A DNA stretch of 64,000 nucleotides from Eledone cirrhosa (taxonomy: Eukaryota): the NCBI GenBank assembly GCA_964016885.1, contig OZ024742.1:77128001-77192000 (forward strand), written 5' to 3'. The notes below the pieces were generated by a model that did no database searches, was not told where the DNA came from, and saw only the letters and a list, made by a program, of their open reading frames with translations. A program made the translations under genes and the position numbers. Below, piece after piece: positions 17,417-17,612 of the stretch; the first letter of the stretch is position 1; each line of letters starts with the position of its first letter.

Positions 17417-17612
17417 ATAGGAAAAGAGTCAGGACTCCGACGGGGCTTAGCTTCGAACGTTTCGACAGCTAGATCCAGTTGTAGCTGTCAAAACGGCCGG
17501 AGCCCAGCCGTCGGGGTCCTGACTCTTTTCCTATTTCCCACACTACTACTCTAAGTATCGAGTACTTTGGTGCCTTATGGTCCACCTGATTCCTTACTCC
17601 ACTTTCTTTGTT
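17417..17612. mobile_element. Family X fold-back element between (TA)n tracts
   Basis: Hairpin 17417-17534 centred on gacagcta(gatccagttg)tagctgtc, plus a unique tail to 17612. Confidence 0.75.

Follow-up and report, generated by a model that had tools for sequence, protein, structure and literature searches.

The inverted repeat at positions 17417-17534 of a 64,000-nt stretch of Eledone cirrhosa DNA (contig OZ024742.1; the whole stretch is referred to here as the window) raises the question of how two arms of one element come to be joined head to head, and why the joint lies within a hammerhead ribozyme motif. A sequence-only reading of the window had proposed that cDNA which has just copied hammerhead stem II snaps back and primes on itself, so that the ribozyme's own hairpin seeds the inverted arm.

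The window is AT-rich and contains many (TA)n runs and short inverted repeats. In the element at 17417-17534 the two arms are identical at 46 of 55 positions, in that at 55193-55303 at 48 of 58 (the right arm having an 8-nt gap) and in that at 9952-10020 at all 23. Each of the three repeats exceeds all of 2000 letter shuffles. They are head-to-head joints of one high-copy, probably Penelope-like end module, sited in (TA)n and called family X below. A profile search of the window with this family finds nine arms in six places, including one at 17060 that the sequence-only reading had not named (Table 1). The single arm at 33742, noticed in the first inspection, was recovered by the profile, and it spans from 17 nt before GAAA to the equivalent of the CCTAT end.

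Table 1. Coordinates of family X and family D features in the window
Feature	Coordinates	Strand	Remarks
Family X short inverted arm	17417..17472	-	outer end CCTAT against (TA)n; inner end 9-10 nt before GAAA, within stem II 3' strand
Family X long arm	17473..17534	+	hammerhead 3' half, runs to CCTAT
Family X 77-nt tail	17535..17611	+	on long arm only, terminates in (TA)n
Family X single arm	about 17060..17103	+	profile match E 8.5e-11
Family X short inverted arm	55193..55251	-	CCTAT end to 17 nt before GAAA
Family X long arm and 77-nt tail	55252..55380	+	hammerhead 3' half, cleavage-site region deleted
Family X long arm with tail	9875..9975	-	begins at cleavage triplet
Family X short arm	9974..10020	+	from 4 nt before GAAA to CCTAT
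Family X single arm	about 33741..33800	-	between two (TA) runs
Whole type I hammerhead layout	56503..56581	+	sole such copy of family X in the window
Downstream continuation of the 56504 copy, diverged, with tail	56582..56656	+	profile match 56537-56656, E 7.8e-12
Family D fold-back	40667..40811	+	imperfect 61-nt stem-loop (40683-40743) before GAAA-C-palindrome-GTA
Family D fold-back	42352..42520	-	same imperfect centre, different short-arm end

The long arm at 17473 starts 16-17 nt before the GAAA position (AAAA in this copy) and runs through the stem II 3' strand, stem III, a GTC triplet and the stem I 3' strand to CCTAT. The loop of its stem III is palindromic and decayed. All three hairpins carry the 77-nt tail on one arm only (17535-17611, 55304-55380 and 9875-9951), and their short arms, as well as the single arm at 33742, finish at a CCTAT site that adjoins (TA)n. 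The seven outer ends given for the elements at 17417, 55193, 9953 and 33742 all abut (TA) runs. The element at 9953 is 23 nt short of a symmetric fold-back, and its arms overlap by 2 nt (CG). Its turn had been placed at the base of stem II. The element is in fact asymmetric, as its short arm begins 4 nt into stem II and its long arm starts from the cleavage triplet. Truncated arms joined head to head, a one-sided tail and a (TA)n target agree with the Penelope-type context suggested earlier, and family X probably represents 5'-truncated short insertions into (TA)n of a Penelope-like end module. Any target-site duplication would be hidden by the (TA)n runs. The portions of the Penelope literature at hand (PMC8557442; PMC3846280) describe a one-sided tail and a neighbouring truncated copy in inverted orientation as standard, and the architecture of these insertions is already known.

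At 17417 and 55193 the reverse complement of the 3' half stands in place of the CTGATGA side of the hammerhead, as the sequence-only reading had noted. The only window copy in which both sides are found is at 56503-56581, where a 4-bp stem I, CTGATGA (56507-56513), a 41-nt stem-loop II with 5 outer pairs (56514-56554), GAAA, a decayed stem III and a UUC triplet follow each other in the type I order of CUGANGA, stem II, GAAA, stem III, NUH and stem I. The layout of CTGATGA, stem II and GAAA that had been described for this copy thus occupies 56507-56558 and is followed by CGGC. As read from the sequence, two of the four stem III pairs are broken, and there is a G-U pair at the base of stem II. 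The minimum-energy fold of this copy has stem II but not the hammerhead shape. Rfam gives nothing at 56504 among 136 window matches to E 1, and its hammerhead matches in the window are two weak HH9 hits elsewhere, of 28-29 bits against a cut-off of 52. The copy is thus best described as a decayed putative ribozyme motif. Its homology to the palindromic copies, which the snap-back proposal had presupposed, was found by blastn (76% over 84 nt, E 3e-8) and again in a held-out test, in which nhmmer with a profile of the other eight arms gave E 7.8e-12. The cDNA hairpin of its stem II has an energy of -4.1 kcal/mol, and 43 of 300 shuffles are equally stable; this energy comes from one old copy, a diverged stand-in for the main subfamily, the native loop and 5' strand of which were not recovered.

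The places at which the arms begin were counted from the G of GAAA. The arms of the 17417 element start at -16/-17 and -9/-10, those of the 55193 element at -17/-19 and -17, the single arm at 33742 at -17, the single arm at 17060 (which has GATA for GAAA) at about -8 to -11, and the short arm at 9953 at -4. With the long arm at 9953 as the exception, seven of the eight truncated window arms begin 4-19 nt before GAAA. Other copies came from four of six sequencing runs, namely two contig sets of one sample (X1 and X2) and two reduced-representation read sets. Reads and contigs were placed on reference 55251-55380 at 80% likeness, with 11,148 to 17,155 records per run.

Among the best 15 of 35 joints, 13 connect opposite strands, and in each of these one arm begins at 55252-55258, that is, at -18 to -12. 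They comprise 12 distinct joints, two of the 13 being one symmetric junction. Four of the 13 were found in both studies, and the commonest inner start in the reads is G55253 (5 of 13). For the 12 distinct joints the clustering of inner starts has P of about 1.7e-5 if, as a rough null, starts are taken to be uniform across the first 20 nt. The symmetric junction is represented by 7+2 contigs in X1 and 4+2 in X2, and is present in both read sets too. The remaining 11 of these 13 joints, still within the best 15 of 35, are asymmetric: the partner arm starts inside the tail, 6-37 nt past the internal site, in seven, and at 55289-55296 in four, positions that are blurred because the reference lacks the cleavage-site region. 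The overlap at the 13 joints is zero in seven, 1 nt in three, 2 nt in one and 3 nt in two. When letters lie between the two sides of a joint, four of seven rows, which give no strand, enter at 55251-55254.

Both outer ends of the module are common among the loose ends. Those reaching CCTAT and then (AT)n number 296 and 340 contigs and 1691 and 1663 reads, and those reaching the end of the tail number 123 and 149 contigs and 2948 and 3029 reads. A few tandem-type joints are also found among the reads. Starts near the inner stop are not confined to inverted copies, as they include the single arm at 33742 (-17) and a direct joint that goes back to 55256. Because the stop occurs without inversion, it would be primarily a hot spot for truncation and only secondarily a turning point. 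The reference begins at 55251, so that it cannot reveal turns lying upstream of this position, and the pile-up lies at its edge; within these limits, and those of the joint sample, the breakpoints cluster at the loop-side end of stem II. Neither uniformly spread breakpoints nor a lack of homology of 56504, the two results that would have told against the first reading, was seen.

Three head-to-head joints of two families (55249-55255, 9972-9977 and 14350-14356) have the form GAC-(0 or 1 nt)-GTC, with both arms beginning at GTC. This may be due to chance.

If a cDNA folds on a copied stem II, the centre of the resulting hairpin should still contain native loop II and the native 5' strand. The left 16 nt at the 55193 centre agree with the reverse complement of the element's own right strand at 15 of 16 positions, compared to 7 of 16 for the native 5' strand in the 56504 copy. 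On the right, 13 of 19 nt agree with the native 3' side, the final bases of the loop among them, and the central loop is 1-3 nt long, native loop II being absent. The symmetric junction, which is the commonest in other copies, is likewise devoid of the loop. The centre of the 17417 element is equivocal. Its first 9 nt fit either origin at 8 of 9 positions, 15 of the 41 native nt are missing, and it can be drawn either as a snap-back on three matching nt (TAG/CTA) or as native stem II minus 15 nt. The 9953 element retains 4 nt of stem II. As its sequence reads, a single self-primed cDNA of either strand would have no template for the other arm, and it is possible to derive the element from one snap-back by a later 23-nt deletion between two CGACG repeats.

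The loose ends upstream of 55252 are mixed, with an agreement of 0.45-0.46 in all four runs (154 and 160 contigs, 1117 and 966 reads). All four upstream consensus lines finish in TAATTT, which resembles the loop of the 56504 copy and indicates that native copies run on into the AT-rich loop, not into the mirror strand. None of the seven rows with letters between the joint sides contains a native-like loop between two stem II positions. Priming by the ribozyme's own stem II is thus not supported in family X, where the native loop and 5' strand are absent at 55193, at 9953 and at the commonest symmetric joint, and the 17417 centre is 15 nt short. This part of the sequence-only reading is not borne out by the junctions of family X, whereas the homology of the copies, the Penelope context and the clustering at stem-loop II stand.

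Several other candidates were rejected. A C in the stem II strand of 55193 looked like a private change of both arms, but C is the majority letter among the reads. Ribozyme cleavage as the origin of the arm starts is unsupported, the long arm at 9953 starting 3-4 nt upstream of the cut and the region being deleted from the reference. A snap-back on stem III, the cDNA hairpin of which has an energy of -5.9 kcal/mol, has no symmetric product in the window.

The explanation that we prefer, with a probability of roughly one half, is that two target-primed cDNAs, one per start site, both halt at loop II and become joined in head-to-head orientation. Both cut target strands would prime reverse transcription. 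A common block where hammerhead stem II meets loop II would halt the two cDNAs, there or earlier, and end joining would follow. The two outer ends would be the start sites of reverse transcription, flanking the tail, and one RNA may serve both primers. A tail-end cDNA that halts just short of the internal primer would give an asymmetric joint, and one that displaces this primer and runs to the same block would give a near-perfect hairpin. The block may be the end of the template, for which a nick in the AU-rich loop II is the likeliest cause, or a stall of the polymerase at this position. The ribozyme would set where copying halts, without priming the turn.

Several results point to the joining of two cDNAs. 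There are two fixed outer ends, 77 nt apart, both of which are major in the reads. The inner ends are piled up 12-19 nt before GAAA in both inverted and single copies. Native loop II is lost, the overlaps at the joints are 0-3 nt and many joints are asymmetric. The 9953 element is not copyable from a single self-primed strand unless a deletion follows. A biochemical precedent is the PAc protein (Poseidon of Anolis carolinensis), which, in the published account as far as it was available, cuts and extends both target strands in vitro, uses two start sites that bound the tail, has an AT-rich target and does not need hammerhead cleavage (PMC11167929). PAc belongs to a different clade and host, and the available part of the account does not address inverted junctions or cDNA stops. 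On the other side, the asymmetric joints could also be read as long-loop snap-backs, the read table giving no outer end for their stem II arm, and the centre of family D, described below, retains an imperfect stem-loop. No autonomous partner of family X was found. With its outer ends fixed at two sites and its inner stop sharply placed within the ribozyme, the family makes twin priming and self-priming distinguishable by counting in a genome, and the distinction is testable in the existing in vitro system.

A rather unlikely alternative is that one tail-primed cDNA stops near loop II and folds back where 1-3 nt happen to match, the copied strand then being cut or joined at CCTAT. The 17417 centre fits this course of events, with its TAG/CTA match around a loop of 8-10 nt. 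Both arms of each family X element carry common subfamily letters, as a snap-back also predicts. Self-priming was inferred from palindromes at Penelope inverted junctions by Arkhipova et al. 2013 (PMC3846280), and the tail has been ascribed to endonuclease resolution (PMC8557442), as far as the portions at hand go. The 2013 proposal, in its accessible part, invokes an antisense template and no ribozyme, and family X junctions, in contrast to it, are mostly without a pre-existing palindrome able to prime. Against this alternative, seven of the 13 joints (best 15 of 35) have zero overlap, and the loops of 1-3 nt at 55193 and at the commonest symmetric joint leave almost nothing that could pair. 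The later 23-nt deletion would be required at 9953, and the single arms share both the CCTAT end and the inner stop with the hairpins.

It is improbable that the cDNA copies all of stem II and primes on the ribozyme hairpin, the loop in family X having been deleted later as the centre decayed. The position of the turns at stem-loop II and the 8 of 9 matches of the 17417 centre to the native 5' strand agree with such priming. However, the loop would have to be lost in all three window hairpins and at the commonest symmetric joint, a native-like loop is missing from the seven rows with intervening letters, and the single arms and the 11 asymmetric joints are left unexplained. The native cDNA hairpin is weak, and in another family, B, both arms extend through a stronger one (-8.6 kcal/mol). 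The turns of families B, E and F lie 41-338 nt upstream of retained cores, and that of family C lies elsewhere.

What looks like the product expected of native-hairpin priming occurs in family D, which appears to fit a snap-back on native stem II better than family X does. The copies at 40667 and 42352 have the same non-complementary internal loop in their 61-nt stem-loop. Their outer ends differ, and they have no common short-arm letters outside the stem. CTGAnGA is absent at the expected place in both. An intact family D copy that would show the native centre was not found, the best other profile match (E 0.18) being the hammerhead at 48152. The two copies lie 1.6 kb apart and may have arisen by common descent.

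Family D brings up the wider notion that the hammerhead in Penelope-like end modules is a turning signal, in which stem-loop II fixes the cDNA stop and families with a long stem II, such as D, self-prime and thereby erase CUGAUGA. We regard this generalization as doubtful. If it were true, the unexplained palindromes at Penelope inverted junctions would be hammerhead stems, and ribozymes that often cleave poorly would gain a role that does not depend on catalysis. Stem II is involved in five of the nine head-to-head joints in hammerhead and 3'-half families (three in family X and two in family D). The other four lie elsewhere: 17800-18195 turns 71 nt upstream of two retained cores, 19047-19208 about 41 nt upstream and 19755-21320 328-338 nt upstream, and at the 14352 joint an arm from stem III meets an arm that starts some 70 nt beyond the cut site. 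The palindromes at 472, 782, 2025, 27483, 34327, 35941, 42914 and 53339 were left out of this count because a scan for the hammerhead core found none in them.

One palindromic family in which no hammerhead core was found (472-738, 1295-1581, 34327-34622, 1704-1812 and 38218-38311) has a second fixed turning point, every arm starting at the same GTAC-containing end.

An inherited hot spot, in which a few source copies already truncated or palindromic at this site seeded the family and no recurrent mechanism operates, is at least as improbable as priming on the native hairpin. One symmetric junction does recur (9 contigs of X1 and 6 of X2), and the two family D copies have the same centre at their distance of 1.6 kb. 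Nevertheless, the three window hairpins have three different junctions and belong to at least two subfamilies, and the 12 distinct joints (best 15 of 35) combine the same inner stop with different partners. A truncated source would account for the stop, but not for the varied partners. That the clustering is mainly an effect of the reference edge or of library chimeras, with the true breakpoints spread across the module, is very improbable: the inner ends all lie within 8 nt of the reference start and the joints are the best supported 15 of 35, but joints with no letters between their sides show that the arms end inside the reference, four joints recur in two studies, the window arms, which are free of the edge, give -4 to -19 in seven of eight cases, and P is about 1.7e-5 for the 12 joints under the rough uniform null over the first 20 nt.

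The joining of two cDNAs at a shared stop has a parallel in the twin-primed inversions of L1, which have close internal breakpoints and are resolved by end joining (PMC11702581, in the parts at hand). As in the twin priming of Ostertag and Kazazian 2001, cited in PMC11702581, two target ends would be primed on RNA and meet in a head-to-head joint of small overlap. According to the same partial source, the second L1 primer uses microhomology to anneal at internal sites that vary, and there is hardly any overlap between the two parts. In family X, on the other hand, the internal site is fixed and the overlap of the arms can be complete, giving near-perfect hairpins. In the excerpts available, the insertion units of endonuclease-bearing Penelope-like elements are described as having a 5'-truncated pseudo-LTR and a (TA)n target bias (PMC8557442; PMC3846280). 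Family X resembles them in its truncated head-to-head arms, one-arm tail, (TA)n sites and a hammerhead in the end module; its tail, however, is 77 nt compared to their 30-40 bp, there is no linked ORF here, and the inner ends accumulate within the hammerhead, a feature not described in those excerpts. Often, 5' truncation leaves new Penelope-like insertions very short, as far as PMC9977147 was accessible, and the formation of inverted ends and the role of the hammerhead are described as open in the portion of PMC8557442 at hand. In the titles, opening lines of abstracts and accessible passages of a mostly open-access literature, we found no mapping of inverted junctions onto the hammerhead and no application of twin priming to Penelope-like elements.

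Pseudo-LTRs are known to carry hammerheads in which stem II is long and loop III palindromic (PMC4209133, in part). Family X is like these metazoan Penelope-like hammerheads in being type I with a short stem I, a long stem II and a palindromic loop III, and differs from those described there in its 41-nt stem-loop II and 4-pair stem III, the sole whole copy being decayed. Retrozymes are tandem derivatives, and the animal non-LTR kind is non-coding with a type I hammerhead, according to the part available of bioRxiv 10.64898/2026.07.22.740005. Family X shares with non-LTR retrozymes the lack of coding capacity, the type I hammerhead and a likely mobilisation by Penelope-like enzymes. Retrozymes in that partial account are tandem with intact ribozymes, whereas family X is truncated and inverted, its window copies are dispersed and the core occurs in one of nine profile-matched arms.

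A retrozyme-like arrangement is found elsewhere in the window, at 13549-14742, where tandem units of about 317 nt are accompanied by an inverted arm. The hammerhead in these units has the core variant UUGAUAA (13746 and 14064 on the minus strand, 14565 on the plus strand). Two more families, at 19169, 43465, 19830 and 21245, have the core variant UUGAAAA, stem II and GAAA, and their inverted pairs retain the motif. A relaxed hammerhead core pattern gives 15 window matches, which belong to several families. Hammerhead layouts with the canonical core represent at least four families (26-54, 17195-17230, 17868-17904, 18091-18127, 32607-32644, 34764-34787 and 48152-48222), and Rfam has no match for these layouts.

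Coding remnants are present in the window. Pfam RVT_1 was found in two of the four window ORFs scanned, one of the matches being at 29297-30049. No Pfam family was found for 2859-3755 or 3775-4533, and solved structures gave no useful match for the 2859 ORF. Broken reverse transcriptase/endonuclease-like frames lie at 2859-4536 and 29294-30049; the first are presumably Penelope-like, judging by their motifs, and the second matches RVT_1. There is no ORF next to family X, and tblastn of three window ORFs gave no match near its copies. A search of viral contigs for the family X motif gave 0 matches. The four matches in metagenome contigs all lie in DNA of 70-73% GC, show no further likeness and were attributed to chance. 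A broken LINE-like element with endonuclease and reverse transcriptase matches occupies 5889-9310 and has a 272-nt tandem duplication at its end, about 560 nt upstream of the 9953 element. A dispersed family that we take to be SINE-like, about 190 nt long and carrying a B-box-like motif, is found at 10509-10724 and in about ten other places.
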